64,000 nucleotides of DNA from Polyangiales bacterium (GCA_038231275.1 JBBRLQ010000016.1:64001-128000), one strand, 5' to 3'. Numbered from the stretch's first letter, positions 20,093 to 35,290 are shown. Made by a program: numbers and translations. The notes: generated by a model not told the origin, from the sequence alone.

Positions 20093-20539
20093 ATGAACGA
20101 CGACGACGCCAAGCCGGCCGCAGCCCCGCTCGGGCGTTACCAAGGCCCCGCGCGCGCCGCGCCCTACCCGCTCAGCCGCATGACACCGGCCTTCGATTTG
20201 GTCGACGTCGCAGCCGAGATCCAGCGCGCCGACACGATGCTCGCGACGGTCACCGGCGGCAAGCTCGAGGTCATCGCCGAGCAGATCCGCGTCCTGCAAG
20301 ACAAGGCGCGCGCCCTCCTCGACGCTGCGCGCCGCGACGCCGAGCTCCACCGCATCAAATGCAGCTTCGAGAAGCGCATCGGCGGCGTCTACCACCTCTA
20401 TCGGGAGGAGGATGGGACGGAGTGGTTCTCCCTCATCGCGCCCGACGAGTGGCGGACGAAGCAGACGCACACGTTCCTTGGGACGTATCGGCTGGAGATC
20501 GACATGGGATTTTCGCGGATCGACGGCGGGACACCATGA
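20093..20539 (+). CDS. DUF2452 family protein
   Basis: PYPLSR, KLEVIAEQIRVLQ, LHRIKCSFEKRIGGVYHLY, FSLIAPDEW pattern. Confidence 0.8.
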   Translation: MNDDDAKPAAAPLGRYQGPARAAPYPLSRMTPAFDLVDVAAEIQRADTMLATVTGGKLEVIAEQIRVLQDKARALLDAARRDAELHRIKCSFEKRIGGVYHLYREEDGTEWFSLIAPDEWRTKQTHTFLGTYRLEIDMGFSRIDGGTP

Positions 20540-21159
20540 AGCGACTCCTCGCCTTCGCCTTCGCCCTCGCCGTGACCGCCTGCGGCGCGGCGACTCCGAC
20601 TCCGACTCCGACTCCGACTCCGACTCCGACTCCGACTCCGACTCCGACCCCGACCCCGACCCCGACTCCGACTCCGGCTCCGGCTCCGACTCTCGGCGTC
20701 GGCGTCGGCGCGGACAAGATCGCCCCCTACACTCCCGAGCAGATCCGCGACGCCACGCCGGAAGGACGCACCTACCGCTACCGCATCGTCCGCGAGGGCA
20801 AGCCTGTGCGAATCGACGAGATGAAGTTCGTCCGTGTCGACGCGCAGGGGGCGGATGTCTCGAGCACGTCACGCGAAGAGCCCGCCGCGGCCACCGAGCC
20901 AAAGATCAAGACGGTCACGTGGGCCGAGCTGCGTGCGCACGGCGAGTTCCCGCGCGCGCTCGTCACCGTCGCGGACGAGCCCGTCGACGTCCCCGCCGGC
21001 CACTTCACGTGCATGGTCTTCACGCTGAAGGACGCGGCGAAGAACGAGGTGTCGCGGTTCTACTTCGCGCGCGAGATTCCCGGCGCGCCAGTCCTCTACT
21101 TCACCGAGAAGGATGGCAAGCGCGTGATGACGGCGACGCTCCTCGAGCATCGCCGGTAG
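20536..21159 (+). CDS. Hypothetical lipoprotein with Thr-Pro linker
   Basis: Lipobox VTAC; (TP)14(AP)2 linker; VDVPAGHFTC motif; ATGA coupling to the upstream gene. Confidence 0.8.
   Translation: MKRLLAFAFALAVTACGAATPTPTPTPTPTPTPTPTPTPTPTPTPTPAPAPTLGVGVGADKIAPYTPEQIRDATPEGRTYRYRIVREGKPVRIDEMKFVRVDAQGADVSSTSREEPAAATEPKIKTVTWAELRAHGEFPRALVTVADEPVDVPAGHFTCMVFTLKDAAKNEVSRFYFAREIPGAPVLYFTEKDGKRVMTATLLEHRR
20593..20688 (+). repeat. Hexanucleotide repeat (ACTCCG)n, 16 units including variants
   Basis: 9x ACTCCG, 3x ACCCCG, 2x ACTCCG, 2x GCTCCG. Confidence 0.95.
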
Positions 21160-21268
21160 CCGGCCGCATCGAACTGGGACCACGCGATGCTCCACGTCAC
21201 CGCCACCGCGCCGCGCCCGCCTGGAGCCATGACCATGCGCCGCGCGTAGGTGTCCCTCACGGCGAGGA

Positions 21269-21283
21269 GACGTCAGTGACGTC
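21269..21283. promoter_or_regulatory. Perfect palindrome, candidate regulator binding site upstream of cheX
   Basis: GACGTCA-G-TGACGTC in a 360-bp intergenic region. Confidence 0.35.
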
Positions 21284-21470
21284 GGGGTTCGAGCACGAAG
21301 CGGGAGAGAAGGAACTCGTCGGCAAGTCGGCTTTTTTGGCGGCCCGCCCGTCGGGCTCCTGAGGTCCGCGTCGGTGCGCGTGTACGCCAAACTCCGACTT
21401 TCTTTCTCAGGTCGTCGGAGCTCTTGGCCGTTCCACGCTTCATGCGCGACCCGTCTGCACGCCTCCTTCG

Positions 21471-21486
21471 CGGCGCACCTGCTGCT
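21471..21486 (+). promoter_or_regulatory. Possible sigma54 promoter for the cheX-led cluster
   Basis: CGGCGCACCTGCTGCT (GG-N10-GC), followed by a GAGGAGG RBS; weaker consensus match. Confidence 0.4.
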
Positions 21487-21518
21487 CGCACCGGCGCGTC
21501 CCGAGGAGGCCTTGCGCC

Positions 21519-22061
21519 TTGAGCCTCTCCGACGAGCTGCAACGCCTCGTTCCGAACGCGTGCGAGGAGGTCCTGTCCTCGATCGGCTTCCGCGCGAAGG
21601 GATCGAGCTTCGGCGACGTGACAGGCGTGCTCGCGCGGCCGCAGGAATACGCGGCGGGGATGACCGACTTCTTCGGCGAGGCGATGACCGGGAAGCTCGT
21701 GCTGGTGAGCACCTTCGACTTCTTCGCAAAATCCGGCCCCAATCGCTGCACGCCGCTGAACATCGAGTCGGCGCGCGACTGGATCCGCGTGCGTGACTGG
21801 ACAATGGAGCTGTCGAACCAGCTCGTCGGGCGCGTGAAGAACCGGCTCTGCACGCTCGGGGTCTCCCTGGACACGCGCCTCCCCAAGGCGGCGTCGGGCC
21901 ACGCGCTCACCGTCATCGTTCGCGAGCGGAAGCGTCCCCCTATCCTCTTCATCGCGGGCGGGCACGACGTCCGCGTCTGGTTCGAGGCGACCGTGAACGA
22001 GCAAGCCGGTCGCGGGCCCCGTGTCGATCCACTGGGCGAAGGGGACGTCGTCTGTTTCTGA
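21519..22061 (+). CDS. cheX: CheX/CheC-like chemotaxis phosphatase
   Basis: DWTMELSNQLVGRVKNRL contains the ExxN catalytic motif; size and GxxxF.G...G.LVL strand pattern fit CheX. Confidence 0.78.
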   Translation: MSLSDELQRLVPNACEEVLSSIGFRAKGSSFGDVTGVLARPQEYAAGMTDFFGEAMTGKLVLVSTFDFFAKSGPNRCTPLNIESARDWIRVRDWTMELSNQLVGRVKNRLCTLGVSLDTRLPKAASGHALTVIVRERKRPPILFIAGGHDVRVWFEATVNEQAGRGPRVDPLGEGDVVCF

Positions 22062-22138
22062 GCGGCGCTCCTACCCCGCCCCACCAAAGGAAGGCGGACC
22101 GATCAAGTCGGGGTGGTCACCAGCCGTTCCTCCAACGG

Positions 22139-24340
22139 ATGGCCTCGTTCACATCACGGCCCGAGGTGCGCGCAGAGAACGGAGCGCGACGACGCTTCGT
22201 CTCTGTCGGCACCAAGCTGACGGGCGCGATGCTCGTGGTGCTGTGCGTCGTGACCGGGTTCGCCTACTTCGAGGTGAGCCGGCACGAGACCGAGGTGCTC
22301 CTGTCGTCGAAGGCGCGCGCGGCGTTGATGGTGAGCGATCTGTTCGCCGCAGGCGTGACCGCTCCGCTCTCCTTCGGCGACGAGCCTGGCGTGCGCGAGC
22401 ACATCGCCCAGCTGATGGCGAACGCCAACATCGTGTATGGCGGCGTGTGGGCCGTCGATCCGGCGCATCCCGGGGAGCGCGGCGAGCTCGTGGGTGAAAC
22501 GGCGCGGGGGTCCGACGTTCCCCCAGCGCCGCGGGAGATCCCCGCCAAAACCAACCTGACGGGCACCCCGCTCGTGTTCGTCGTCGAAGAGCCGGTTGCC
22601 GGCGCTTCGGGCGAGCTCCTAGGTGTCGCGCGCGTCGCGTTTTCGCTGCAGCCCCAAAACGCCGCGATCGCGGCCGCGAAAGACCGGACGTTGGCGACGT
22701 CCCTGGCGATGGGCTTCGTCCTCGCCGCGGTCCTCCTCGCGCTCTCGCGCACGCTGGTCGTCCGCAGGCTCGCCAGCCTCGCCCGCGCCGCCAAACGCCT
22801 GGAGGACGGCAGCGACGTCGACGTCGACGTCGACAGCAACGATGAAGTCGGCCACCTCGCACGTGCGTTCACGAGCATGAGCGCCGCCATCGCCAGCCGC
22901 GAAGCGCGCATCGTCTCCCGCAACCGCGACTTGAGACGCGTCCTCGACAACGTGGCCGAGGGCCTCATGACCGTCAAGAAGGACGGAGCGATGTCCGACG
23001 AGCGCTCCCGCGTCCTCGACCAGTGGTTCGGCGTCCCCGCGGAGAGCGCGAAGATCTTCGACTACTTCGAAGCCTTCGCGCCGGAGGTCGGGCGACTCTT
23101 GCGCATCGGCTGGCTCGCGCTCGAGGATGATTTCATGCCCGTCGAGGTGATCCTCGATCAATTGCCGCGACGCTTTCGCCACGGCCCGCGCGCCTTCGAC
23201 GTCGACTACTCGCCGATCTGGAAGGGTCGCGACAACGAGCTGGTCTTGGACGAGATCCTCGTCGTGGTGCGCGACGTCACGTCGTCGGTCGAGCGCGAGC
23301 GGGCCGAGCAAAGTCAACGCGAGGCGCTCCGCGTATTTCGGCACATTTTGCTCGATCCCGCAGGATTCCGCGGGTTCATGCAGGCTACCGCGCACCTCCT
23401 CGACGTCATCGAGCAGAACGCGCACGACGCGCCGCGCTCGCGCCGCGACATCCATACGCTCAACGGCAACGCGGCGCTCTACGGGCTCGAGAGCCTCTCC
23501 GCCGCCTGCCACCGCATCGAATCGCGTCTTCAGGACGAAGGGGGCGCGCCGACCGCCGCGGACCTCGTGGAGCTCCGCGCCGCGTGGGACCTCGTGTGTG
23601 CGCTCGCGTCGGATCTCGACGGACCGGCGCGGCGGCCGCACGTGGAGCTCCGGACCGAGGAGTACGAGCGTCATCTCGCGGAAATCGAGCGTGGCGCCGC
23701 GCATGCAGAGCTCGCCGCGACCGCGCGCGCATGGACCCACGAGCTCGCCGAGCGCCGCCTCGAGCGCATCGTCGAACAAGCTCGCTCGATCGCGCGGCGC
23801 GTGGGCAAGGCCGACGTGACGATCGAAGCGCACGCCCGACCCACCGCGTTGCGTCTCCCCGTGGCCCGCTGGGCGCCGTTTTGGAGCGTCTTCACCCACG
23901 TGCTTCGCAACACCCTCGATCATGGCATCGAGACGAACCAGGAGCGCGTCGCGACGGGAAAAACCGGGAGCGGCCGCGTCGACATCACCCTGTCGACGAC
24001 GCGCACCTCCGTCGAGCTTCGCGTCGAGGACGACGGTGGTGGGATCGCGTGGGAAAAAGTACGCGAGCGCGCCGTCGGGCTCGGCCTCGCCCACGACTCC
24101 CACTCGGATCTGGAGGAGGCGCTGTACGTCGATCGCATGACCACACGCCACTCGGTCACCGAGATCTCGGGTCGCGGCGTCGGCCTCGGGGCGGTCCGCG
24201 AGGTCGTCGTCGGCTGCGGTGGCACGATCGCCCTCGAAACCTCGCCCGGCCGCGGCACCGTATTCGTGTTCCGATTCCCCCTCGCCATGCTCGAGGACGC
24301 ACGAAGCAGCGCGCCGTCCACGACCCCCAAGGTGGCGTAG
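22139..24340 (+). CDS. Membrane sensor kinase: TM-periplasmic-TM-HAMP-PAS-like-HPt-CheA-type HATPase, no CheW domain
   Basis: Two TM helices; HAMP (SNDEVGHLARAFTSM); VLDNVAEGL; HPt RDIHTLNGNA; RNTLDHGIE, VEDDGGGI and EISGRGVGL CheA-type boxes. Confidence 0.9.
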   Translation: MASFTSRPEVRAENGARRRFVSVGTKLTGAMLVVLCVVTGFAYFEVSRHETEVLLSSKARAALMVSDLFAAGVTAPLSFGDEPGVREHIAQLMANANIVYGGVWAVDPAHPGERGELVGETARGSDVPPAPREIPAKTNLTGTPLVFVVEEPVAGASGELLGVARVAFSLQPQNAAIAAAKDRTLATSLAMGFVLAAVLLALSRTLVVRRLASLARAAKRLEDGSDVDVDVDSNDEVGHLARAFTSMSAAIASREARIVSRNRDLRRVLDNVAEGLMTVKKDGAMSDERSRVLDQWFGVPAESAKIFDYFEAFAPEVGRLLRIGWLALEDDFMPVEVILDQLPRRFRHGPRAFDVDYSPIWKGRDNELVLDEILVVVRDVTSSVERERAEQSQREALRVFRHILLDPAGFRGFMQATAHLLDVIEQNAHDAPRSRRDIHTLNGNAALYGLESLSAACHRIESRLQDEGGAPTAADLVELRAAWDLVCALASDLDGPARRPHVELRTEEYERHLAEIERGAAHAELAATARAWTHELAERRLERIVEQARSIARRVGKADVTIEAHARPTALRLPVARWAPFWSVFTHVLRNTLDHGIETNQERVATGKTGSGRVDITLSTTRTSVELRVEDDGGGIAWEKVRERAVGLGLAHDSHSDLEEALYVDRMTTRHSVTEISGRGVGLGAVREVVVGCGGTIALETSPGRGTVFVFRFPLAMLEDARSSAPSTTPKVA

Positions 24341-24395
24341 GCGACACGCTTCTTTCGGCTACAGGCTGGAGCCGACCGCCCGTTCACCTGAGGTC

Positions 24396-25622
24396 ATGGA
24401 CCGGACCCGCGCCGCAAACTTCGACCGGAACGCAGACCACGGGCAGGTCACGCACGACGCAGGCGAGGTCACCGGCATCCGGAAGAGCGTGCCCGCGCGG
24501 GCCTCGCGAACGCGCGTCGAGGTGGACCTCGCGGCGATCGTCGCCAACGCGCGCGACGTGAAAGAACGCGTCGGCCACGGCACAGGCGTGCTCGCGATGC
24601 TGAAGGCGAACGCGTACGGCCACGGTCTCCTCCCGGTCGCCCACGCGCTCGCGCTGGACGGGACGATCGCGGGCATGGTGGTCACGACGCAAGCCGACGG
24701 CCTCGCGCTCCGCCGGAGCGGCATTGGGACGCCCATCCTCGTCCTCGGTGCCGGCTCCGTCACCGATCCTCGCGCCGGGCTCGACGCGGGGCTCGTCCCC
24801 GTCCTCGCGTCGGTCAGCGATCTCGAAGCCGTGGCGCGCGCGGCGCGGGCGCGAGGCCTGCGTGCGGCCGTCCACGTGAAGCTCGACACGGGAATGGGGC
24901 GCCTCGGCGTGAAGGAGGCCGACGTTCACGCGTTCCTGCGCGCGGCGAGCCGCTGTCCCGAGATCGCGATCGTCGGACTCTGCACGCATCTCACGTCCGC
25001 GGACGACGGCGATCCGGCGCAGAGCGATCACCAGCTCGCGGCCTTCGAAGGGGCATACGCGGCCTTCGCCGCCGCCGGGCATTGGCCGACGGAGCTCCAC
25101 GTCGCGAACACCGCGGCCACGTTTCGTTTACCCCGTACGCACTTCTCGCACGTGCGCACCGGGATCGCGCTGTTCGGAGGCGACGAGCCGAGCGGCGCGC
25201 GACTACGGCCGGCGATGCGGCTCGTCACACACGTCGCCGAGGTCCGCGCCGTGGCGACGGGCGACGGTGTCTCGTACGGCGCGACGTGGCGTGCCCCGCG
25301 CCCCTCGCGGATCGCGACGCTCCCCGTCGGCTATTCCTCGGGCTACCCGCGACGGCTCGCCGGGCGCGCCGAAGTGCTCGTCCACGGACGCCGCTGCCCC
25401 GTGGTCGGCCTCATCTGCATGGAGGCCTGCATGGTCGACGTGACGGACCTTCCCTTCGACGTGACCGTCGGCGACGACGTCGTGCTCTTCGGAGACGACG
25501 GTGCGGACCGGATCCTCGCGACCGACCTGGCGCAGGCGACCGGTGGAATCGTCGAAGAAATTTTTTGCGGCATCCCACGAGACCTGCCGCGCGAATACCG
25601 CGACGCGGGAGCCCCACGATGA
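24396..25622 (+). CDS. alr: Alanine-racemase-family PLP enzyme with atypical active-site entry residues
   Basis: KANAYGHG (PLP Lys), HVKLDTGMGRLG, VRTGIALFG, GVSYG (catalytic Tyr). Substrate may not be alanine. Confidence 0.88.
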   Translation: MDRTRAANFDRNADHGQVTHDAGEVTGIRKSVPARASRTRVEVDLAAIVANARDVKERVGHGTGVLAMLKANAYGHGLLPVAHALALDGTIAGMVVTTQADGLALRRSGIGTPILVLGAGSVTDPRAGLDAGLVPVLASVSDLEAVARAARARGLRAAVHVKLDTGMGRLGVKEADVHAFLRAASRCPEIAIVGLCTHLTSADDGDPAQSDHQLAAFEGAYAAFAAAGHWPTELHVANTAATFRLPRTHFSHVRTGIALFGGDEPSGARLRPAMRLVTHVAEVRAVATGDGVSYGATWRAPRPSRIATLPVGYSSGYPRRLAGRAEVLVHGRRCPVVGLICMEACMVDVTDLPFDVTVGDDVVLFGDDGADRILATDLAQATGGIVEEIFCGIPRDLPREYRDAGAPR

Positions 25623-28600
25623 CGTCCCTCCGAGCCACGACACGCGCATCCCTGGACGATACGGGTCTCCTCGCGATCGCCGGTGCCCACTCGGCGTCAC
25701 CGGGGGCCGCGCTCATCGGCGTCGTCGCGGGCTTGCTCACGCGTTACTCCGGCAAGACCGCGGTGACGTTGCGTGTCGACGTCGACGGCGTCGCCCGCCG
25801 GTTGCGCGTCGACGTCGATGGAGCCCCGAGCACCGGTGAGCTCGTTTCCCGCGCCGAGGTCGCGCTCGCCGCCGCCGTCGCCGACGAGAGCCGGTCGGAA
25901 GGGCACGCGCTCCCGGGAATCGTCGACGACGCCGATGTGCACGTCGTGCTCGGCCCGGTGACGGACACGGAAGGCGCCGATCTGGTTATTTCCGCGTCGA
26001 AAGGCGGCATCGATCTCGACTTCGGCGCGCGCATCGAAGCCATCGCGGCGGACCGGATCACGTCCCACGTGTCGACGCTGATCGCGGCGATGGCGTCCGC
26101 CGCCGACGCACGCGCTGCGGTGGCGATGCCCGTGGCCTGTTTGCCCCTGGTCGATGGGGAAGAGCACGCCTGGCTCCTCGCGCGCTCGAACGCCTGCAAC
26201 ATCCTCTGGAACGAGGCGCTCCCCAGCGTCGTCGCCCTGTTCGAGGCGCACGCGCGGAAAACGCCGGACGCTCCCGCACTGCAAGAGGGCGCCCGCACCT
26301 ACACGTACGCGGAGACCAACGCCGCCGCCGATGCGTTGGCTGCACTACTGCGTGCGCGCGTCGGCGACGAGAATCGACGCGTGGCCGTGTACCTCGAACG
26401 CGGCGCGTACGCCGTGATCGCGTTCCTGGGAATTCTCAAGGCGCGCGCGACGTACGTGCCGATCGACGTCACCTACCCGCAAGGGCGTGTGGCCGCGATC
26501 CTCGCCGTGGCGGCGCCCGCCGTCCTGCTCACCCGCGCCGCGTTGTCCGCGGACGCGTCGGCGAGCCTCGAATTCGCGCCCCCTCGCGTGCTCGTCGACG
26601 ATCCCGCACGCGACGAAGCCGAAGGCGCGCGCATCGTGGACGTGCCGCCCGGCGCGACGACGGTGCGGCCCGACGACATCGCCTACACGATCTTCACCTC
26701 GGGCTCGACGGGCCAGCCGAAGGGTGTCGTCGTCGATCATCGAGCGCTCGCCAGCTACGCGCGCGCCGTCACCGACGCCTACGGCCTCGGCGCGCATGAT
26801 CGAGTCCTCCAAGCCGCGTCGCTCGGCTTCGATCTCAGCCTCGAAGAGATCGTCATCACGTTGACCGCCGGCGCGTGCCTCGTCTTCCGCAGCGCCGCGC
26901 CCATCGCGTCGGTCCAGTCGTTCGTCGCCGAGTGCGACGCCGCACGCCTCACCGTCCTCAGCATCACGTCGGCGCTCTGGCACGAGCTGACGCTGCGCCT
27001 CGACGACGGCTCCGTGCGCCTCCCGGAGCGCGTGCGCCTCGTGATCCTCGGCGCGGACGTCGCGCGCCCCGACATCCTCACGGTGTGGAGGCGCGCCACC
27101 GACCCGTCGATACGCCTCGTGAACAGCTACGGTTTGACTGAGACGACTATCGTTGCGACGGTGTGGGAAGACACGCGCGCGCCGCTCGGCGAAGGTCTCC
27201 GCGCGTTGCCCGTAGGACGGCCTCTCCGCAACGCCTCCACCTACGTGCTCGACGCGCACTCCGCGTTCGTCCCCGTCGGCGTCGCCGGCGAAGTCTGCGT
27301 GGGCGGCCTCGCGGTCGCGCGTGGATACCTCGGCGACGAAGCGCTCACCCGCGCGCGGTTCGTACCCGACCCGTTTCTCCCCGGCCATCTCATGTACCGG
27401 ACGGGCGACCGCGGCATCCTCGGAGCCGGCGGCGACCTGCAGTTTCTCGGGCGCGCCGACTACCAGATCAAGGTAAACGGCGTACGCATCGAGCTCGGGG
27501 AGATCGAGACGCGGCTCCGCGAGCTCCCGGGTGTCGTGGAGGGCGTCGTCGTCGCGCAAAAAAACCACGCGGGCGAGACCGAGCTCGACGCGCACGTGAT
27601 GGTCACGTCGTCGGCGGTGACCGCGGAAGCACTGCGGGCACACCTGCAGCTCGTCATCCCGCTCGCAGCCGTCCCCGCGCGATTCCACGTAGTCGACCGT
27701 TTCCCCCTCACGCCGGCGGGCAAGATCGATCGGCGCGCCCTCGCCGCACGCGTGACGCCGTCGTTGCGGGTCGCCGGCGTGGACCAGACGCCGCCGTCGA
27801 CGCCGACCGAAGAGCTGGTCGTGCGCGCGATCGCCGAGGTCCTCGGTCGGCCCAGCGTGGGCGTTCTCGACGACTTCGTCCGCCTCGGAGGGACCTCCTT
27901 GGCGGCGGTCCGCGCCGCGTCGCTCCTCGCGCATCGAATGTCGCGGCCCGTGCGCGCACAGGTCTTCCTCGACGGGAGAACCCTTCGGGAGGCATCGGCG
28001 GACCTCGCGAGCCCCATGCACACCCACGCCACGTCGCTCGTTCCATTGGGATCGATCGCGCGCGATCAGGCGCTCGATCCGGCGATCGTCGCGCTCGGCG
28101 ACGTCGCGGGTCGGGGCACGCTCGCGAACGTGCTCGTGACCGGCGCCACCGGCTTCTTCGGCGCCTTCGTGCTGGCCGAGCTCCTCCGCGAGACGTCGGG
28201 CCACGTCACGTGCATCGTGCGCGCCGCGTCGCTGGAGGAGGCACGCGCGCGACTAGTCGCGAACGCCGAGCGTCTCGAATGCGGCATCGAGCCCGACGCG
28301 TGGTCGCGGGTGACCGCGGTCGCGGGAGACCTCGCTGCGCCGTTCTTGGGCCTCGCCCCCGCCGACTACAAGCGCCTCGCCGCCACCGTCGACACGGTCT
28401 TCCACGTCGGCGCGCGCGTGAACATGATGCTGCCGTATAGCGCGCTGCGCGGGAGCAACGTCGTCGCCGTCGAATCCGTCCTTCGCTTCGCCACGACCGC
28501 GCGCGCGAAGACCGTGCACCACGTCTCGACGGTGGAGGTCCTCGCCGACACCGATCCGGGCGATCCCCAGGCGCGCCAAGAGCGTCGCGCCGCGGCCACG

Positions 28601-29308
28601 CCCGAGCTCCTCCACGAGGGGTATGGGCAAACGAAGTGGGTCGCCGAAAAGCTCGTCGAGGAGGCCCGCGCACGGGGAATTCACGCGTACATCCACCGGC
28701 CGGGGAGGCTCATGGGCCACTCGCGCACCGGCGCGTTCAACGCCGAGGATTTCCTCGTTCGCATGCTCGCGGCGTGCGTCGAGCTCGGCGCCGTTCCGCA
28801 CCTCGAGACGACCGTCGATCTCACGGCCGTGGACGACGCGAGCCGCATGCTCGTGCGCCTCGCGCGACGTTGCCCCTCGCGGGTCGACACGTTCCACCTC
28901 GTCCACCCCGAGGGGAAGACCTGGGCGTCGCTCGTGGCGGATCTCGGGCGTACGGGCGCGCGCGTGCAACTGCTCCCCCACGCCGAGTGGCAAGAGCTCT
29001 TGCAGAAACGCGCGGCGACGAGCGAGCGCGGCGACTTCTTGCGGTACTTGGCGGGAATGTCAGGCGATGTGCTGGAGGCCCAGATCGCCGGCGGCTTCGC
29101 TTCGGACAAGACCCGCGCCGTGCTGGAGGCGGACGTCTCGTGCGCGCCCGTCGACGCGCGGCTCCTCGCGACGTACATCCGCGCGCTGGGCACCGCCGGC
29201 ATCTTCCCCGCGCCGACGCCGTCGCTGAGCCCCAAGACGCGCGGCTCCGTCTTCCCTCCGCCGCGAGACGCGCGCGGCCGCGTGCAGAGCGCCGAAGAGA
29301 CGTCGTGA
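25619..29308 (+). CDS. Stand-alone NRPS-like enzyme: truncated C-like domain, adenylation, PCP, thioester reductase
   Basis: ATGA-coupled to the racemase. A-domain cores YTIFTSGSTGQPKG, FDLS, NSYGLTE, GEVCVGG, YRTGD, RIELGEIE, PLTPAGKIDR; PCP FVRLGGTSL; R domain VTGATGFFG, HVST, GYGQTKW. Confidence 0.93.
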   Translation: MTSLRATTRASLDDTGLLAIAGAHSASPGAALIGVVAGLLTRYSGKTAVTLRVDVDGVARRLRVDVDGAPSTGELVSRAEVALAAAVADESRSEGHALPGIVDDADVHVVLGPVTDTEGADLVISASKGGIDLDFGARIEAIAADRITSHVSTLIAAMASAADARAAVAMPVACLPLVDGEEHAWLLARSNACNILWNEALPSVVALFEAHARKTPDAPALQEGARTYTYAETNAAADALAALLRARVGDENRRVAVYLERGAYAVIAFLGILKARATYVPIDVTYPQGRVAAILAVAAPAVLLTRAALSADASASLEFAPPRVLVDDPARDEAEGARIVDVPPGATTVRPDDIAYTIFTSGSTGQPKGVVVDHRALASYARAVTDAYGLGAHDRVLQAASLGFDLSLEEIVITLTAGACLVFRSAAPIASVQSFVAECDAARLTVLSITSALWHELTLRLDDGSVRLPERVRLVILGADVARPDILTVWRRATDPSIRLVNSYGLTETTIVATVWEDTRAPLGEGLRALPVGRPLRNASTYVLDAHSAFVPVGVAGEVCVGGLAVARGYLGDEALTRARFVPDPFLPGHLMYRTGDRGILGAGGDLQFLGRADYQIKVNGVRIELGEIETRLRELPGVVEGVVVAQKNHAGETELDAHVMVTSSAVTAEALRAHLQLVIPLAAVPARFHVVDRFPLTPAGKIDRRALAARVTPSLRVAGVDQTPPSTPTEELVVRAIAEVLGRPSVGVLDDFVRLGGTSLAAVRAASLLAHRMSRPVRAQVFLDGRTLREASADLASPMHTHATSLVPLGSIARDQALDPAIVALGDVAGRGTLANVLVTGATGFFGAFVLAELLRETSGHVTCIVRAASLEEARARLVANAERLECGIEPDAWSRVTAVAGDLAAPFLGLAPADYKRLAATVDTVFHVGARVNMMLPYSALRGSNVVAVESVLRFATTARAKTVHHVSTVEVLADTDPGDPQARQERRAAATPELLHEGYGQTKWVAEKLVEEARARGIHAYIHRPGRLMGHSRTGAFNAEDFLVRMLAACVELGAVPHLETTVDLTAVDDASRMLVRLARRCPSRVDTFHLVHPEGKTWASLVADLGRTGARVQLLPHAEWQELLQKRAATSERGDFLRYLAGMSGDVLEAQIAGGFASDKTRAVLEADVSCAPVDARLLATYIRALGTAGIFPAPTPSLSPKTRGSVFPPPRDARGRVQSAEETS

Positions 29309-30930
29309 CCGCTCCTTCGATGGAAGACGGCCCGAAGGTCGAGCGCTCGCTGTCACGGCGCGACGTCGTCCTCTTCCTCGTGTGCACGCTCGTCGGTCTC
29401 GACACGCTGGGCAGCGTCGCGGCCCACGGGGGCGAAGGCTTCGTGTGGCTGCTTGTGATGGCCGCGACGTTCTTCGTCCCCTACGCCCTCACGGTCGCCG
29501 AGCTCGGCGCCGCGTTCCCCCAGGAAGGCGGCGCGTACGTGTGGACCAAGCTCGCGTTCGGCCGCTCCGTCGCCGCGCTGAACGCCGTCTTCTATTGGAT
29601 CTCGAACCCGATCTGGCTCGGCGGCGCGCTCACGATCACCGCCATCACCACGTTCGAGACGTTCTTCGTTCCCCTCGGCCTCGTCGGCAAGTGTGTCTTC
29701 GGGCTCGCGCTGGTCTGGGGTTCCGTCGCGAGCGCCGTCGTCTCGCTTCGTGTCGGCGCGTGGATCACCCGGTGCGGCGCGGTTGCACGCGTGGCCCTCC
29801 TCGTTCTCTTCACGGGCACCGTCGCCATCTACGCCGCACGGCACGGCGTCCACGGCGCGCGTCTCCCGCAATTTTCGCCGACGTACGACGGTTTTTTCGC
29901 GGTCGTGCCGCTCCTCTTCTTCAACTTCGTCGGCTTCGAGCTTCCCAGCGCCGCCGGCGGAGAAATGGTCGATCCTCGCCGCGACGTGCCCTTCGCCGTC
30001 GCGCGCGCAGCCATCGCGGCCGTCGTTTGCTACGGCGTCCCCATCCTCGCCATCTTGCTGGTCCTCCCCACGGAGCGCATCACCGGGCTCAAGGGCTTCG
30101 TCGACACCATGCAGCTGGTCTTCACGGTGTACGGCGGCCACGTACAGCCCGCCGCCGGCGGCGGCGAGATCGTCGTCCTCGAAGGGGCCGGCAGAGTCAT
30201 GGGCGCCGTCGCCGCGATCGGCTTCATCGTCGCGCTCGCGACGAGCGGCATCACCTGGATCATGGGCGCCGACCGAAGCCAGGCGGTCGCCTGCCTCGAC
30301 GGAGGCGGCCCGCGATGGCTCGGCTCGTTCGAGAACCGGTGGGGTACGCCGGTGGCCCTCAACGTGGCCTCGGGCATCGTCGCCACGCTGGTCATGCTCG
30401 CGGCGTTCGCGGTCACCGGCGGCGACTCCGAGAAATTCTTCGCCGCGTCGTTGAACCTCGGAATCTCCACGACGACGCTCTCCTACCTCGTCATCTTCCC
30501 CACGCTCTTCCTGCTCCGACGGAAATCCCGCGACGTCGCGCGCCCCTACCGCGTGCCCGGCGGCGACGTCGGGGCGTTCGTCGCCAGCGTGCTGACCACC
30601 GGATGGGCCTGTTTCGCAGCGATCGGGCTCCTTTGGCCAGGCTTCGGCCGGCGCGGCGATCCCGACGCGGCGTTGCCCTCCGGCTTCGTCACCCTCGACG
30701 CGCATGGAATGGTCGTGGCGTCCGAGCGGGCGCTCTTCGAGCTCACCCAGATCGTACCGCTCGTGATTTTCCTCGCGCTCGGCGTTCTTCTCCTGGCGCG
30801 CGGGCGGCGCGAGCGAGCGCTCAAGGAGCGACCCGTCTCCGCGCCTGCACGCGCCTCAAGCCTTCGCCCTTCGCGCCGTTCATCCGAAGGATGCATCTCC
30901 GTTCGCCCGGCTCGCTTGTCCGTGCCCTGA
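29305..30930 (+). CDS. APC superfamily amino-acid/polyamine permease
   Basis: GTGA-coupled to the NRPS; AELGAAFPQEGGAYVWTKLAFG, FNFVGFE, RPYRVPGG; about 12 TM helices. Confidence 0.92.
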   Translation: MTAPSMEDGPKVERSLSRRDVVLFLVCTLVGLDTLGSVAAHGGEGFVWLLVMAATFFVPYALTVAELGAAFPQEGGAYVWTKLAFGRSVAALNAVFYWISNPIWLGGALTITAITTFETFFVPLGLVGKCVFGLALVWGSVASAVVSLRVGAWITRCGAVARVALLVLFTGTVAIYAARHGVHGARLPQFSPTYDGFFAVVPLLFFNFVGFELPSAAGGEMVDPRRDVPFAVARAAIAAVVCYGVPILAILLVLPTERITGLKGFVDTMQLVFTVYGGHVQPAAGGGEIVVLEGAGRVMGAVAAIGFIVALATSGITWIMGADRSQAVACLDGGGPRWLGSFENRWGTPVALNVASGIVATLVMLAAFAVTGGDSEKFFAASLNLGISTTTLSYLVIFPTLFLLRRKSRDVARPYRVPGGDVGAFVASVLTTGWACFAAIGLLWPGFGRRGDPDAALPSGFVTLDAHGMVVASERALFELTQIVPLVIFLALGVLLLARGRRERALKERPVSAPARASSLRPSRRSSEGCISVRPARLSVP

Positions 30931-31790
30931 TCACCGCCGGCCTCGTCTCCGGCGTCCTCGCCTGGGCGACGCCCTCCGCGGCGCAAGCGCCGAGTCCCGA
31001 CGATCCCACGCCACAGGCGCCGCCGGCGCCCGTCGGCATCTCCGGGCTCTTGTCGAACAGCCTCGTCCTTCGCGGAAATCCCGCCGAGTCCACACTCATC
31101 ACTGTGCTCTCCGCCGGCTACTCGTGGACCCCCGCGCTGTCGACGTTCGTGCGCATTGGATCGGTGCACAATGCATCCAGTGACACGTCGAGCGCCACCG
31201 GCCTCGCCAATCCCGCGCTCGGGGCGAGCCTGCAATTTCCCATCGGAAAGCACTTCATCGTCGGCGGCACCTCCGGGCTCACGCTCCCCATCGGCTCCGG
31301 CGGCGGAAACGGGCCTTCGGCGGCGGCCTTTCGCGCGTGGAACAACAGCATCGACTGGGGCGGCGCGATGTTCGCCGTCGACCACCTGGACATCTTCAAC
31401 GGCGTCCGCGCCTCGTTCGCCGCGGGCGCGCTCACCGTCCAATTCGAATCGATCCTCCACGAGCTCGTGCGCGTACGCGGCGAGGCCATCGACCCCATCG
31501 GCGCCGCCGCGAGCGTGACAGGCACCACGGCGACGGTGTCGTACGCGGTCATCCCACGACTCACCCTGTCGACCGCGCTCTCGGAGACGCGCTTCTGGAA
31601 CACGCCGGTCTACATTACGCAAAGCCCTGACTCGCGCGTCGACTACTTCTTCTCCGCGGGAGCCTCGACGAGCCTGAAATTGGGCGCGCTCGATCTCACG
31701 CCAGGCCTCGTGTACGCGCGCGCGCTCGATCTGCCGCTCGCAACTTCCCGCTTTCAGGTGCTCGAGGCGGATATCGGTTTCTCGCTTTGA
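30891..31790 (+). CDS. Probable outer-membrane beta-barrel protein
   Basis: Signal peptide ending AAQA; alternating amphipathic strands; C-terminal EADIGFSL; GLANPALG resembles myxobacterial transporter barrels. Confidence 0.6.
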   Translation: MHLRSPGSLVRALITAGLVSGVLAWATPSAAQAPSPDDPTPQAPPAPVGISGLLSNSLVLRGNPAESTLITVLSAGYSWTPALSTFVRIGSVHNASSDTSSATGLANPALGASLQFPIGKHFIVGGTSGLTLPIGSGGGNGPSAAAFRAWNNSIDWGGAMFAVDHLDIFNGVRASFAAGALTVQFESILHELVRVRGEAIDPIGAAASVTGTTATVSYAVIPRLTLSTALSETRFWNTPVYITQSPDSRVDYFFSAGASTSLKLGALDLTPGLVYARALDLPLATSRFQVLEADIGFSL

Positions 31791-31843
31791 TTCCCGTGGT
31801 TGCCCCCTAAGCTCGCCGCCCCCTCGCGCCGTTTACCCAGTTC

Positions 31844-34063
31844 ATGGCACGCGGACGCTGGGCACGACGGAGGGGGGCTCCCATCGGGGGGCTCGTTTCG
31901 CTCGTCGCGCTCGCGTTGACGTCGGCGATCGCGCGCGCAGACGACGAAGAGGATCTCGCGGGGCTTCTCGACGAGCACGTCGTCAGCGGGGCGTCGAAGA
32001 CGCACGAGATGGCGAAGGATGCGCCGGCGACCACGTCGGTCATCACCGCGCAGGACATGCACCGGTACGGCATCCGGTCGATCGCCGAAGCGATCGATTT
32101 CCTCGGGATCGGCCTGATCACGCAGAACCCGCTCCACTCCGTCGAGATCGGCGGCCGCGGCGTCCTCGTCACGTCGGACTTCGGCAACCACGTCCTGCTC
32201 GTCGTCGACGGGCACGTGTGGAACGAGCCGTGGGACGGCACCGCCTACTTCGAGCAGGGCGCCGGTATTCCTCTCGAGATCATCGATCACATCGAGCTCG
32301 TGCTCGGCCCCGGCTCGGTTCTCTATGGCGGCAACGCGATGATCGGCGTCGTCAACGTCGTCACCAAGCGCGCCGCCTCGTACCGTGGTCTGCACCTCAT
32401 CGCCGAGGGCGGCCTCTCGCCGCAGCAGGGTAGGAACGGGGCGATCACGAGCTGGTCGCCGGCAAACCTCGGTGGCTCGTACCGCCTGGGCGCCGGCTTC
32501 GGGCACGAATTTTCGCTGTTCGGCAAACCCGCCGAGATCGTCGCCCACGCCGAGCTCTACGGGCAAGACGGTCCGTCCTTCTTGTGGGGCCCGCAAACCG
32601 CGACGACCGCCGACGGTGCGCCGCGCGACTTCGGTCCGCGCACGCCGGTCGGCCTCTGGGGCGGTCGGATCACGCAGCAATACACTACGACCGTCCCGAC
32701 GCTGTACACGCGCATGCACGTCGGCGACTGGTCGGTGATGTTCCGCGCCGAGTCGTATCGCCGCACGACGCCGACGCCGAACGGCTTCAATCAGCAGAAC
32801 ACCGACTTCGACGAGCCGCGTTCGTACGAGCGCGATCGCTTCCTCTCCCTCGACGTCCAATACAAGAAGCGAATCGGCGAGCGCTTCGACCTCTCGCTGC
32901 GCGGCTACGCGGACGCGTACGACTACTTGCAGCACACCTACAACACGGACACCAACGTGTGCGCCGTGCCGACGACCGGGCCCTGCCTCTTCCAGGGCAA
33001 GGGGCACTCGCGCTGGATCGGCGCCGAGGTGCAAGGCTCGTACGATTGGACCGGCGGAGACCGCTTCACCACGCTCGTCGGCCTCAAGGGCACAGTCCGC
33101 GACATCGGCGGCGAGACCGACTCGATCGACACGAGCAACAGCCAGACCGTTCATGTCGACGGCGACAAGACCCTCACCGAGATGGTCTGGGCGGCGTACA
33201 TCCAGCAGCGCCTCAACCCGGTTCCGGTCCTGCATTTGAACGCCGGCGCCCGCTATGACGCGGAGCCCCGCGGAGGCGATCGCGTCTCCCCGCGCGCCGC
33301 CGTCGCGCTGGACGTGTGGCGCGACGGCGTCGTCAAGCTCAGCTACGCCGAAGCATTCCGCGCGCCCACGTTCTTCGAGGCCTTCTACGAGTCGCCGAAC
33401 CAGCGGCCGAACACCGGCATCAAGTCGGAGTCGGTGCGCGGCGTCGAGTCGAGCATCGAGCAGCGCTTCGGGCGTCACAAGCTCCTGTTCGGCGTCTTCC
33501 GCACGTGGTGGAGCGACATGATCTCCATTCGCCCGATCGAGGACGGCGTCTACCAGTACGAGAACGTCTCGCGGATCGACAACTACGGCTACAACGGCCG
33601 CGTCGAAGGGGCGATGGGCGCGTTCCGTTACGGCGCGTCGGTGACCGGTGCGTACACACGACGCACGACGCCAGACGGCACCGATCCGCTCCCCGTCGCG
33701 CCGCAGCTCTTCGGAAACCTTCGCGGCTCCTACGCCCTCCCCGCGCCTTGGCCGACCATCGGGCTCGCGACCACGTTCGTCGCCAAGCGGCCGGCCGATC
33801 GCGTGCTCGACGGAAATTTCGACCCTGCCCCTTACGCGCCGGCGAGCGCCGAATTCCGGCTCACGTTGTCGCAGCTAGTCCCTGGCGTGAAGGGGCTTTC
33901 CTACCGCCTCGCCTCGTCGATCACCACGGGTAGCGTCTCGCCTTACGTCGCCGGCCCCACGCAAGGCTACGCCCCGAGCGCCTCCGCGCGAGGCCCCGCC
34001 GAGCTCACGCCCGTCATCCGTTTCGTGACCTTCGGAACGCTCCAGTACGACCTGCCGCTATGA
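31844..34063 (+). CDS. TonB-dependent receptor
   Basis: VVSGASK...APATTSVITAQD plug, IDHIELVLGPGSVLYGGNAMIGVVNVVT, LNAGARYD, SPRAA, YAEAFRAP; ends LQYDLPL. Confidence 0.93.
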   Translation: MARGRWARRRGAPIGGLVSLVALALTSAIARADDEEDLAGLLDEHVVSGASKTHEMAKDAPATTSVITAQDMHRYGIRSIAEAIDFLGIGLITQNPLHSVEIGGRGVLVTSDFGNHVLLVVDGHVWNEPWDGTAYFEQGAGIPLEIIDHIELVLGPGSVLYGGNAMIGVVNVVTKRAASYRGLHLIAEGGLSPQQGRNGAITSWSPANLGGSYRLGAGFGHEFSLFGKPAEIVAHAELYGQDGPSFLWGPQTATTADGAPRDFGPRTPVGLWGGRITQQYTTTVPTLYTRMHVGDWSVMFRAESYRRTTPTPNGFNQQNTDFDEPRSYERDRFLSLDVQYKKRIGERFDLSLRGYADAYDYLQHTYNTDTNVCAVPTTGPCLFQGKGHSRWIGAEVQGSYDWTGGDRFTTLVGLKGTVRDIGGETDSIDTSNSQTVHVDGDKTLTEMVWAAYIQQRLNPVPVLHLNAGARYDAEPRGGDRVSPRAAVALDVWRDGVVKLSYAEAFRAPTFFEAFYESPNQRPNTGIKSESVRGVESSIEQRFGRHKLLFGVFRTWWSDMISIRPIEDGVYQYENVSRIDNYGYNGRVEGAMGAFRYGASVTGAYTRRTTPDGTDPLPVAPQLFGNLRGSYALPAPWPTIGLATTFVAKRPADRVLDGNFDPAPYAPASAEFRLTLSQLVPGVKGLSYRLASSITTGSVSPYVAGPTQGYAPSASARGPAELTPVIRFVTFGTLQYDLPL

Positions 34064-34701
34064 GGACGATGGACGCCCTCCACCTGCCGTCCGCGCCGCG
34101 CGATCTTTCGCGACGGCGGGGCTTCGCGCAGTGGGCGCCGCTCTTCCTTGCGCTCTCCTTCGTGCTCACCGCGTTGACGTTCGCGCGTGACGCCCGCGCC
34201 GACGCGCGCGTTCCCGTGCAGCTCCAAGCGCAGCTGGTCGCCCGCCTCGCCACTTTCGATCGGAATTTCCAAGCGCGCGCCGGATCCGTCGTCAACGTCC
34301 TCGTCGTGCACCTCGCGGGCAACCCCGAGTCGACGTTCGAGGGGGCGAACCTGGCCAAGGCGCTCGGTGAGCTCCGCGACATCGCCGGCGTCCCCGCGCG
34401 CGTCGACGAGGCCGCCTTCAGCGACGGTGCTTCTCTGGCCACGCGCTGCCGCGATCAGCACATCTCGATCGTGTACTTCGCCGTGGGCCTCGAAGGCGAG
34501 ATGACCGCGGTCGCGAAAGCGCTGGCCGGCGTGGACGTCTTGACCGTGGGCACCGCGGCGCGTCACGCAGAGAACGGCGCCGTCGTCGGTTTCGGTCTCG
34601 AGGAAGCGCGCCCCAAGATCGTCCTCAATCTGAAGCAAGCCCGCGCCCAGAACGTGGCCTTCAAAGCGGAGCTGCTCAAGCTCGCGCGCATCGTCGAATA
34701 G
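34060..34701 (+). CDS. YfiR family (DUF4154) periplasmic protein
   Basis: ATGA-coupled to the receptor; signal peptide; VLTVG, GAVVGF, PKIVLNLKQARAQ...ELLKLARIV C-terminal signature. Confidence 0.85.
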   Translation: MRTMDALHLPSAPRDLSRRRGFAQWAPLFLALSFVLTALTFARDARADARVPVQLQAQLVARLATFDRNFQARAGSVVNVLVVHLAGNPESTFEGANLAKALGELRDIAGVPARVDEAAFSDGASLATRCRDQHISIVYFAVGLEGEMTAVAKALAGVDVLTVGTAARHAENGAVVGFGLEEARPKIVLNLKQARAQNVAFKAELLKLARIVE

Positions 34702-34743
34702 ATGCCCCCTTCAGGTCCTCGCCGCCGGGCCGTTCTCGACATC

Positions 34744-35163
34744 ATGCCTCCGAAGGTGATCGTGATCGACGACTCCGCGACCGTGCGCGAGCAAGTGAGC
34801 ATCGTTCTGGCAGCCGAGGGCTACGAGATCGTCGAAGCCGAGGACGGCGTCGAAGGAGCAAATGCCATTCGTCTCAACCCCACCGCCGCGCTCGCGATCT
34901 GCGACTTCAACATGCCGAACGGCAGCGGCCTCGAACTGCTCCAACTGCTCAAGGAGCGCGGGGATTCGGTGCCCGTCTTGATGCTCACCACCGAAGGCCG
35001 CGCCGACCTCATCGAGCGGGCGCGCGCGTTCGGCGCGAAGGGGTGGATGGTCAAGCCGTTCAAGCCCGGGATGTTGTTGGTGACCGTGAAGAAGCTCGCG
35101 CGCGCGGCCTGCCACTTGCGGGAGCTCCCGAGGAAGCCGCCGAGCGCCGGCGCGCCGAGGTAG
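34744..35163 (+). CDS. Single-domain response regulator (CheY-like)
   Basis: VIDDS acidic pocket, CDFNMP phospho-Asp, MLTTEG, WMVKPF. Confidence 0.92.
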   Translation: MPPKVIVIDDSATVREQVSIVLAAEGYEIVEAEDGVEGANAIRLNPTAALAICDFNMPNGSGLELLQLLKERGDSVPVLMLTTEGRADLIERARAFGAKGWMVKPFKPGMLLVTVKKLARAACHLRELPRKPPSAGAPR

Positions 35164-35290
35164 CGAGAGCGCGTGGTATTACCGACGCTCAGCGCGCCGA
35201 GGTAGCGAAAGCGCGTGGTGTTGCCGAGACGAGGGTGCGCGAGCTCGAAGGGGAATTGCGTCGCGTGCGCGGCGGGAAGAGTTCGGGAAG
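35110..35290 (+). pseudogene. Relic coiled-coil 3' fragment resembling the tail of Uma2-family proteins, with a 42-bp-period direct repeat
   Basis: Alternate frame reads APEEAAERRRAEVARARG...AETRVRELEGELRRVRG with no credible start. Repeat copies at 35150-35185 and 35192-35227. Confidence 0.45.

Follow-up and report, generated by a model that had tools for sequence, protein, structure and literature searches.

Organization of the locus

We analysed a stretch of 64,000 nucleotides from a Polyangiales bacterium (GCA_038231275.1 JBBRLQ010000016.1:64001-128000), hereafter the window, in which three genes on the + strand (24396-30930) encode an alanine racemase-family protein, a protein resembling a nonribosomal peptide synthetase (NRPS) that ends in a reductase domain, and a permease. 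An original prediction, made from the sequence alone, had read them as a translationally coupled three-gene pathway that reduces a single amino acid, possibly in its D-form, to an amino aldehyde. The window has a G+C content of about 70%, and the G+C content of third codon positions (GC3) clearly marks the reading frames, with values of 0.86-0.88 in the frames of the racemase, NRPS-like and permease genes. The TGA stop codon of the racemase gene (24396-25622, + strand, 408 aa) overlaps the ATG of the NRPS-like gene (25619-29308, + strand, 1229 aa) by 4 nt (ATGA). How the permease gene (29305-30930, + strand) adjoins the NRPS-like gene depends on its start: with GTG it encodes 541 aa and overlaps the NRPS-like stop codon (GTGA), and with ATG 29320 it encodes 536 aa and follows after an 11-nt gap; the ATG start is used in the database copy of the permease (P0246, 536 aa). 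The three genes are thus packed and coupled as had been proposed.

A search with Rfam at E<=1 between positions 20000 and 36500 returned a single chance microRNA match (24 bits vs a gathering score of 69) and no lysine riboswitch. Scanning 20500-36500 for promoters and terminators gave one promoter-like and four terminator-like sites, where shuffled sequences give 0.7 and 7.4. These counts are no higher than those of the shuffles, and the limits of the operon are therefore drawn from gene spacing and synteny alone.

Domain architecture of the NRPS-like protein

Pfam recognizes AMP-binding (residues 208-571), AMP-binding_C (628-702), PP-binding (733-793) and NAD_binding_4 (840-1075) in the NRPS-like protein, which corresponds to an adenylation (A) domain, a peptidyl carrier protein (PCP, or thiolation, T) domain and a thioester reductase (R) domain of the short-chain dehydrogenase/reductase (SDR) type. 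The A domain (26240-27724, + strand, aa 208-702) scores 255.9 bits with AMP-binding and 387 bits with the NCBIfam model TIGR01733 (cutoff 317), and it contains the core motifs FTSGSTGQPKG, NSYGLTE, YRTGD and GK702. The PCP domain (27815-27997, + strand) scores 30.1 bits with PP-binding (cutoff 20.8) and carries its serine, Ser760, in a GGTSL motif. In the R domain (28130-29218, + strand), which scores 295 bits with TIGR01746 (cutoff 213), the motifs TGATGFFG and YGQTK are present, and among solved structures the domain comes closest to the MxaA reductase (4U7W, 244 bits).

We assembled a reductase family made of the window protein and 31 relatives of equal layout and length from metagenomes, which are 45-57% identical to it over the searched first 500 residues and 51-56% over the full-length alignment. 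Ser760 is invariant in all 32 members, as are the TGxTGxxG motif (841-848), S970/T971 and Y1002/K1006 of the R domain, which bears out the claim that the PCP serine and the reductase Thr, Tyr and Lys residues are intact. D405 and K702 of the A domain, equivalent to Asp235 and Lys517, are also invariant. Asp235 marks an alpha-amino acid substrate in A domains.

Ahead of the A domain lies a segment of 207 aa (25619-26239, + strand, aa 1-207), in which the original prediction had seen the distal half of a condensation (C) domain lacking HHxxxDG. The strings GLLTRYSG and LRVDVDGAPSTGELV that it had quoted are present, and its estimate of about 190 aa was short. On its own, this N-terminus has no Pfam or NCBIfam match even at E<=10, and we therefore drew its identity from a family profile and from its fold. 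The profile was run on 349 long open reading frames (ORFs) of 77 NRPS loci, which were fetched in a scan of one genome per species for relatives of the reductase, and it gave 87 domain matches. Among the 57 non-family matches listed, 40 begin 77-103 residues past an HHxxxD[GA] motif, 15 have no strict upstream motif, and two lie at other distances. Against the PDB, the profile matched 20 sequences at E<=0.01, all of them C-type domains of NRPSs with the condensation fold, two being glycopeptide X-domains, and the alignment covers their second half (e.g., Txo1 227-456).

An AlphaFold model of the N-terminus, built from a 15-sequence alignment (pLDDT 86.7), had 114 condensation-fold matches in Foldseek at E<=0.001. 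Its TM-score was about 0.64 when normalised to the query and 0.25-0.31 when normalised to isolated C-type domains, so that the model matches half a C domain and not a complete one. No member of the reductase family (0 of 32) has an HHxxxD[GAS] motif. We conclude that the catalytic lobe of the C domain is missing from this segment and that only the C-terminal lobe is left, in agreement with the original prediction. It is shortened to 171-177 aa in three family members (P0031, P0032, P0036) and to 43 aa in a fourth (P0034), which suggests a structural leftover. With only this vestigial half domain and no catalytic His motif, condensation in cis is not possible, and the protein reads as the stand-alone A-PCP-R enzyme that had been proposed.

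Relationship to known A-T-R enzymes

The best NCBIfam model of the NRPS-like protein is MxcG of myxochelin biosynthesis (NF038078), aligned from residue 111 to the end of the protein, yet the score is 640.8 bits vs a cutoff of 2300 and the match begins at position 367 of the 1442 in the model. The Lys2 model TIGR03443 matched in four fragments (352.8 bits vs a cutoff of 1030.1), and the carboxylic acid reductase model NF041592 gave 147.9 bits vs a cutoff of 1300. We rejected an assignment to MxcG, Lys2 or carboxylic acid reductase, as all three scores are below the curated ones. The exclusion of MxcG in the original prediction stands: besides the low score, there is no full C domain, and we found neither dihydroxybenzoate (DHB) nor isonitrile genes among the Pfam-scanned ORFs of the window. 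Its parallel with Lys2, the fungal alpha-aminoadipate reductase, holds for the A-T-R layout and aldehyde release and fails for membership; moreover, the window family is restricted to one clade of Myxococcota, which is not the distribution of a primary-metabolic gene.

The features expected of an A-T-R reductase are all found in the sequence: an A domain, a PCP, an SDR-type R domain, and no functional C domain. As the best reading of the NRPS-like protein we therefore retain the originally proposed release of a single amino acid by reduction, with the aldehyde, or else the alcohol, as the predicted product. Precedents for the release of amino aldehydes by A-T-R enzymes are described for GupB, PvfC, HamD, CmlP and Lys2 in the available part of one report (PMC8179380), where single-module enzymes of this kind are presented as rare and little explored in bacteria, and for ATRed of Xenorhabdus indica in the available part of another (PMC7586950). 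GupB, which makes guanipiperazine, ATRed, PvfC, HamD and CmlP are all described as A-PCP-R proteins without a working C domain that release amino aldehydes (PMC8179380, PMC7586950). The likeness of the window protein to this group is one of layout and motifs, drawn from these descriptions and not from sequence comparison. Enzymes of the GupB/ATRed type load aromatic or aliphatic amino acids (Tyr, Phe), whereas the window protein has a code of the Arg/Lys type, as detailed below; and the accessible portions of their descriptions mention neither a racemase nor half a C domain, both of which occur here.

The nearest idea in print, as far as the available portion of the source extends, is the C-minus protein of livipeptin biosynthesis (Streptomyces lividans Sli0883-85), an A-PCP-R protein without a C domain for which Arg is predicted (PMC10548850). 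It is accompanied by a neighbouring leucine/phenylalanine (L/F) transferase and an N-acetyltransferase (PMC10548850), which we did not find in the window. Terminal reductases are also shared with MxcG and with the isonitrile-lipopeptide (INLP) NRPSs Rv0101, MmaA and ScoA, which are C-A-T-R proteins with Lys as the predicted substrate. These differ from the window protein in that the latter has neither the N-terminal lobe of the C domain nor HHxxxDG; as the catalytic lobe is missing, acylation of the MxcG/INLP kind cannot occur in cis.

Acylation in trans has nevertheless to be considered. The reductase could be one half of a pathway to a peptidyl or acyl amino aldehyde, in which a partner encoded elsewhere, such as a stand-alone C domain, a tRNA-dependent enzyme of the L/F-transferase type or an acyltransferase, acylates the PCP-bound Arg or Lys and yields an argininal or lysinal compound of the protease-inhibitor type. 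Livipeptin offers a direct model for it, as its C-minus A-PCP-R protein is described as working with a separate L/F transferase (PMC10548850). In MxcG, the closest NCBIfam model, Lys is acylated ahead of reduction, and the retained C-domain lobe could still dock such a partner. Against this, neither the conserved gene block delimited below, nor the 53 ORFs of the window taken into the Pfam scan, nor the flanks of one related locus (L003) yielded a transferase, a C domain or an acyltransferase, and the remnant that would serve for docking is eroded or nearly missing in the four family members mentioned above. We consider this pathway unlikely, and retain the reduction of a free amino acid as the preferred reading.

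Predicted substrate of the adenylation domain

We set the ten code positions of the A domain by HMMER alignments to the A domains of TycA and ApnA A1, and obtained DLESIGSIVK. The code is well conserved in the 32-member family: 24 members are identical, seven carry S322T and one carries I299V. Among the 15 solved A domains that match the pocket segment, ApnA A1 (4D4G) stands apart with 83 bits, the next reaching 39 bits, and it reads DVESIGVIAK at the aligned positions. Incorporation of Arg, Arg and Lys, or Arg and Tyr is described for ApnA A1 genotypes that follow the pattern DVE[DS]IG..[EA]K (PMC5311044, available part). The related Glu239 codes DIEDVGSVVK and DTEDVGTVVK of the INLP NRPS A domains are presented as code-based Lys predictions in the accessible part of a preprint (bioRxiv 10.1101/121228).

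Across the fetched loci (128 A domains in 77 loci), Glu occupies code position 239 in 21 of the 25 A domains nearest to that of the window and in none of the 103 others. These nearest Glu239 domains carry codes such as DTEDIGSVVK and DAEDIGTIVK, and the codes read from the remaining A domains of these loci are ones that we take to be usual for Ser, Thr, Gly, Gln and Orn. We predict that the substrate is a basic amino acid, Lys or Arg, and not alanine. A slight lean toward Lys comes from the single acidic residue of the pocket and from S322 and V331, which match Lys codes. By analogy with the bispecificity of ApnA, Tyr is a further possible substrate. We found no publication containing the codes of the family itself in a literature search that left most subscription journals outside, and a search there for another lysine code likewise came back empty.

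Three Myxococcus loci (L015, L027, L028) were considered as possible MxcG loci and set aside as references for Lys, their code being of another, non-acidic type (DLF.NALTYK). Separately, a locus of Baaleninema simplex PCC 7105 (L044, 8492-13126) encodes a 1545-aa C-A-T-R protein whose code, DTEDIGSVVK, hardly differs from those published for the INLP NRPSs with Lys as the prediction; it may represent a cyanobacterial enzyme of the MxcG or INLP type.

A divergent clade of alanine racemase-family proteins

The product of the first gene (24396-25622) is a pyridoxal phosphate (PLP)-dependent racemase of the Alr family, with the Pfam domains Ala_racemase_N and Ala_racemase_C. In an alignment of 120 sequences, the PLP lysine K70 (in AMLKANAYGHG) is at least 90% conserved and Y294 (in VSYG) is invariant. 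The fold, the PLP lysine and the equivalent of the catalytic Tyr265 of alanine racemases are thus present, and Tyr354 is not: the His-Tyr pair of Alr (tIHYEv) reads Val-Glu (gIVEEi) in the window racemase, with Glu387 opposite the Tyr in the alignment with Mycobacterium tuberculosis Alr.

We aligned and ranked the best 120 homologues. The Tyr354 position is Glu in 63 of the first 67 (the others being three Tyr and one fragment), and in ranks 68-120 it is Tyr in 52 and Trp in one. In the tree, all 63 Glu-type racemases group in a single clade, with an SH-aLRT of 100 and a stem 0.49 long, next to 16 sequences of the Tyr type. Six positions split the two types, among which 343 (CMD to CME) and 387 (Tyr to Glu) do so at 100% vs 98-100%. 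Where Alr would carry its carbamylated lysine, by our reading of the alignment, Glu or Asp stands in 54 of the first 67 homologues, and Lys in the window racemase. Tyr354 (Geobacillus numbering) is described as a key determinant of alanine specificity, occupied by Asn in VanT and by Pro391 in BsrV, and swaps at this position shift specificity 30- to 62-fold (PMC4542195, available part).

Given the Glu at this position and the separate clade, we read the racemase as a remodelled descendant of an alanine racemase and not as an ordinary one: the racemase of the original prediction keeps its place in the Alr family, by Pfam and the NCBIfam equivalog TIGR00492, and parts from ordinary alanine racemases by Glu387 and its clade. 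VanT, BsrV, Bar and Lyr share the fold and the catalytic residues and are, according to the accessible sections of the same study, likewise retuned at the Tyr354 position (PMC4542195). They differ in that VanT and BsrV have Asn and Pro there, where the window racemase has Glu together with CME. The membrane domain of VanT is absent, and the N-terminus (MDRTRAANFDRN...) shows no hydrophobic signal segment on inspection by eye. With Glu rather than Pro at this position and no such segment, the protein also departs from the broad-spectrum racemases. The carboxylate that Glu387 would place beside the side chain of the substrate agrees with the predicted acidic pocket of the A domain.

Only one other fetched locus has an Alr-family gene beside an A-T-R-containing NRPS gene (L060, 14438-15535, Leptolyngbya sp. 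JSC-1). Its Alr-family protein is 34% identical to the window racemase and has Trp at the Tyr354 position, and the A domain beside it has a Gly-like code.

Conservation of the racemase-reductase pair

Among the 77 loci, only three are close to the window, with 51-55% identity and the N-terminal remnant covered; they come from two Polyangiales metagenome-assembled genomes (MAGs) and one Polyangiaceae MAG, and are referred to as L001, L002 and L003. The next-best loci reach at most 42% identity. The racemase gene lies directly upstream of the reductase gene in all four loci, the window included, and overlaps it by 4 nt in three (ATGA in the window, GTGA in L001, TTGA in L003), with a 10-nt gap in L002. 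L001 ends inside the reductase gene. Using identical sizes of the longest carrying contigs as a sign of shared contigs, we paired 18 of the 31 family reductases with a racemase of the Glu clade.

These observations bear on whether the adjacency could be incidental, the racemase being the housekeeping Alr for peptidoglycan and the reductase using an L-amino acid independently. In favour of such a role, the racemase keeps its Alr fold and its catalytic residues, with the PLP lysine in AMLKANAYGHG and Tyr294 in SYG, and we saw no second alr gene among the scanned ORFs of the 64-kb window. The Glu-type clade, however, sits on a long stem next to Alrs of the canonical Tyr type, several of them labelled Myxococcota, and the adjacency in four of four loci, the 4-nt overlaps in three of them and the 18 indirect co-occurrences argue for a functional pair, so that an incidental arrangement is very unlikely indeed.

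The same size matching pairs the permease with only seven of the 31 reductases, and eight contigs of at least 30 kb are without a close match. The permease, together with an outer-membrane channel encoded just downstream of it, is present in L003 and absent in L002. The absence from L002 and the few pairings lead us to propose the racemase and reductase as the conserved core, with permease and channel optional. The description as a three-gene pathway was therefore too narrow: the permease is missing from L002, the channel adds a fourth gene, and the conserved block as a whole spans 21519-35163. This block is colinear with L001-L003 and homology stops at both of its ends. The flanks of L003 carry unrelated genes, and the block is therefore a discrete unit and not part of a general colinearity of the genomes.

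A different pathway would be a self-sufficient one of three genes, in which an ordinary Alr makes D-Ala (or another small amino acid), the A-T-R enzyme reduces this to an aldehyde that dimerises, and the permease exports the resulting pyrazine or piperazine. Each element has something to recommend it: the score of the racemase is above the cutoff of the alr equivalog, hardly any space separates the three genes, and ATRed, GupB and PvfC are described as yielding pyrazines or piperazines in this way (PMC8179380, PMC7586950, available parts). The A-domain code, though, combines an acidic residue at position 239 with small pocket residues, and 21 of the 25 nearest A domains share Glu239; the racemase is without the Tyr that enforces alanine specificity; and relatives can do without the permease. 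In addition, the stereocentre would be lost on aromatisation to a pyrazine, and the racemase would then serve no purpose. We regard this D-Ala pathway as very unlikely, and continue with a core that would act on a basic amino acid.

The permease and the outer-membrane channel

The permease (29305-30930) matches Pfam AA_permease_2 with 129 bits and belongs to the amino acid-polyamine-organocation (APC) superfamily, where its nearest relatives are amino-acid/amine antiporters; we place it as an accessory to the core. Its best PDB matches are GadC (46.6 bits) and AdiC (37 bits). The scores with the NCBIfam antiporter equivalogs, among which the GadC model ranks first, are far below their cutoffs (GadC 99.3 bits vs 650, AdiC 28.6 bits vs 574), so that the assignment holds at the level of the superfamily.

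The permease gene overlaps by 40 nt, at its end, a gene for an outer-membrane beta-barrel channel with a signal peptide (30891-31790, + strand, 299 aa), whose ATG at 30891 is in frame. Read on the + strand, the channel is 67% identical over 276 aa to its counterpart in L003, and it has 234 relatives in a representative library. Its AlphaFold model (pLDDT 90.1) has the COG4313 channel 4RL8 as best Foldseek match (TMq 0.60, TMt 0.67). An antisense ORF (31118-31603, - strand) was dropped as a candidate, the + strand match of the channel to L003 being longer and stronger.

In some metagenomic relatives the permease is called as a single long ORF (P0258, 814 aa; P0262, 761 aa; P0263, 740 aa), and residues 460-740 at the end of P0263 match the outer-membrane channel. 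A real fusion between a permease of the inner membrane and a barrel of the outer one is implausible, and gene callers have probably joined two overlapping genes, such as those with the 40-nt overlap in the window.

Sensing genes flanking the core

The first gene of the block (21519-22061, + strand) encodes a CheX-type phosphatase and is colinear in L001, L002 and L003 with 45-54% identity. The Pfam CheX match is weak (E 0.0044, below the cutoff), and the call comes from the ESM Atlas (score 0.94, 217 of 256 features, 22 of 30 matches in CheX clusters). It is followed by a gene for a membrane sensor kinase (22139-24340, + strand), which lies upstream of the racemase gene in all three related loci. 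The kinase has two transmembrane segments, a periplasmic part and the Pfam domains HAMP (206-251), Hpt (413-484) and HATPase_c (586-716). In NCBIfam, its ATPase is nearest to CheA models and its N-terminus (25-251) matches HK_near_YfiR_like (NF053592) with 33.1 bits vs a cutoff of 194. Its architecture is odd in that Pfam and NCBIfam detect no HisKA, CheA dimerisation or CheW-like domain. The protein looks like a membrane-anchored, CheA-like kinase.

Downstream of the channel lies a gene for a TonB-dependent receptor (31844-34063, + strand; Pfam Plug and TonB_dep_Rec_b-barrel), 70-75% identical in L002 and L003, whose best NCBIfam match is the TOL_0244 family (87.7 bits vs a cutoff of 645). 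The ATG of the next gene (34060-34701, + strand) overlaps the receptor stop codon; its product is a YfiR/HmsC-like periplasmic protein (Pfam DUF4154, 48 bits vs a cutoff of 24.9; NCBIfam YfiR_like_TOL0243, 32.6 bits vs a cutoff of 125). The last gene of the block (34702-35163, + strand) encodes a stand-alone, CheY-like receiver regulator (Pfam Response_reg; CheY 65 bits vs 189), and here the homology to L002 and L003 ends.

The most specific match of the kinase, the receptor and the YfiR-like protein is in each case a member of one NCBIfam triad (HK_near_YfiR_like, TOL_0244, TOL_0243). The window differs from the triad in that its kinase carries Hpt and a CheA-type ATPase and in that biosynthetic genes stand between kinase and receptor. 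With all three scores far below the cutoffs, the window proteins would at most act in the manner of the triad. Among the papers listed by a literature search for links between DUF4154, TonB-dependent receptors and histidine kinases, none named DUF4154.

With such genes around it, the module could instead serve uptake and catabolism or detoxification, whereby external D- or L-basic amino acids are imported by way of the channel and the permease, racemised, and reduced to an aldehyde or alcohol that is metabolised further, while the sensors report their presence. In Pseudomonas putida, broad-spectrum racemases are reported to supply the breakdown of Lys and Arg (PMC6034422, available part), D-Arg and D-Lys are described as chemotactic signals in Vibrio cholerae (PMC10390336, available part), and Che-type parts do flank the module. 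As an entry into catabolism, though, a thiotemplate reductase that consumes ATP and NADPH would be costly and, from what is established of A-T-R enzymes, unprecedented; the block has no downstream dehydrogenase or aminotransferase, and permease and channel are absent from L002. We therefore consider a catabolic role quite unlikely, and return to a biosynthetic module.

Proposed pathway

We propose that the locus encodes a racemase-coupled A-T-R module that reduces a basic amino acid and is tied to envelope sensing, a reading that as a whole we put at about an even chance of being right. Its core would be a two-enzyme module of Polyangiales-type Myxococcota, with a cytoplasmic racemase translationally coupled to the reductase and supplying the D-isomer of Lys or Arg. 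A precedent for a racemase feeding an A domain is the cyclosporin cluster, in which a separate alanine racemase is described as providing D-Ala to the NRPS SimA (PMC3688495, available part); that system differs in being fungal, with a multimodular NRPS, alanine as substrate and no reductive release. The A domain would adenylate a single basic alpha-amino acid, with Lys and Arg as the likeliest candidates and the D-form as a possibility, and load it on the PCP serine. We detected no phosphopantetheinyl transferase (PPTase) family in the Pfam scan of the 53 window ORFs, as had been predicted, and the PPTase would therefore have to come from elsewhere in the genome. The 207-aa C remnant is probably kept as a scaffold that packs against the A domain.

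The SDR domain would then release the product with NAD(P)H as an alpha-amino aldehyde, or as an amino alcohol after a second reduction. The MxaA and MxcG systems both go on to alcohols. We favour a product in which the stereocentre is kept, either an amino alcohol or an amino aldehyde, the latter free or in cyclised form. The pyrazine branch of the original prediction is disfavoured, since a pyrazine would erase the stereocentre that the racemase is proposed to set, while its suggestion of an azepine- or aminopiperideine-type product fits the predicted basic substrate, the product itself being a conjecture. The permease would plausibly swap the precursor for a product lacking the carboxylate, since its nearest solved relatives, GadC and AdiC, exchange an amino acid for a carboxylate-free amine, and the COG4313-like channel would plausibly let the product cross the outer membrane. 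Finally, the position of the module between the CheX/CheA-like kinase pair and the TonB receptor/YfiR-like/CheY set suggests that the product is made for, or controlled by, an envelope-sensing system.

Several points weigh against this proposal. On the side of the substrate, the code is identical to any published code at only six to seven of ten positions, ApnA A1 with its similar code accepts Tyr too, and the preference of the A domain for a D-isomer is, like the contact of Glu387 with a cationic side chain, something that we infer. The racemase scores 266.9 bits with the alanine-racemase equivalog TIGR00492 (cutoff 168), its best PDB match is M. tuberculosis Alr, and it is nearer to such true Alrs (197 bits) than to Bar (152 bits) or Lyr (116 bits); moreover, the hydroxyl of Tyr354 is described as touching the PLP phosphate in BsAlr (PMC4542195, available part). 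As for linkage, the size-matched co-occurrence in metagenomic relatives is indirect, three reductases (P0008, P0009, P0029) pair with a permease and with no racemase among the best 120 homologues, and the extended synteny comes from three MAG loci, one of which (L001) is incomplete. The three flanking proteins matched to the NCBIfam triad also score far below its cutoffs.

The chemistry of A-T-R reductive release is already known. What appears new is the predicted basic substrate, the dedicated clade of racemases with the Tyr354-to-Glu change, and the embedding in a block of TonB, YfiR-like and Che-like sensing genes. Among the papers listed by a search, with most subscription journals outside it, for alanine racemases with NRPS-like reductases in myxobacteria, none describes this cluster. 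Among the characterised A-T-R enzymes compared here, none is described, in the available portions of the sources, with a free basic amino aldehyde or with a racemase of its own. The module is thus a candidate route to free metabolites of the lysinal/argininal or lysinol/argininol type in uncultured Polyangiales, and its naturally retuned racemases could extend the understanding of substrate choice in the Alr fold. It also offers a handle on the function of the uncharacterised TonB-receptor/YfiR-like/kinase triad, into which a small biosynthetic module would be wired.

A more speculative extension, which we hold to be improbable, is that the cassette makes and senses its own signal, an amino aldehyde, amine or cyclic imine derived from D-Lys or D-Arg. 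Such a signal would be exported by the antiporter and the COG4313-type channel and read back by way of the TonB receptor and the YfiR-like protein; the membrane-bound CheA-like kinase would then drive the CheY/CheX pair. If true, myxobacteria would have an extracellular signal of a new class, paired with a dedicated receiver of the chemosensory type.

Other features of the window

Just past the block, a 147-aa ORF (35519-35962, - strand) belongs to the C-type lysozyme/alpha-lactalbumin family (PF00062, E 2.5e-17), a family that is mainly animal and unusual in a bacterium. Further downstream, a protein with DUF6817 and JmjC/cupin domains (40340-41839, - strand) is encoded divergently to a Ser/Thr protein kinase (41834-42889, + strand). 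A protein of the phosphoenolpyruvate (PEP) mutase/isocitrate-lyase family (52001-52840, - strand; PF13714, 272 bits) adjoins a metallophosphoesterase (50773-51957), and the two could be a phosphonate-related pair. On the other side of the block, an RCC1-repeat protein is encoded at 9340-10563, and an SRP54 (Ffh) homologue (2264-4351, - strand) has a called length of 695 aa, of which about 147 residues precede SRP54_N; this reflects either a long N-terminal extension or a wrongly chosen upstream start.

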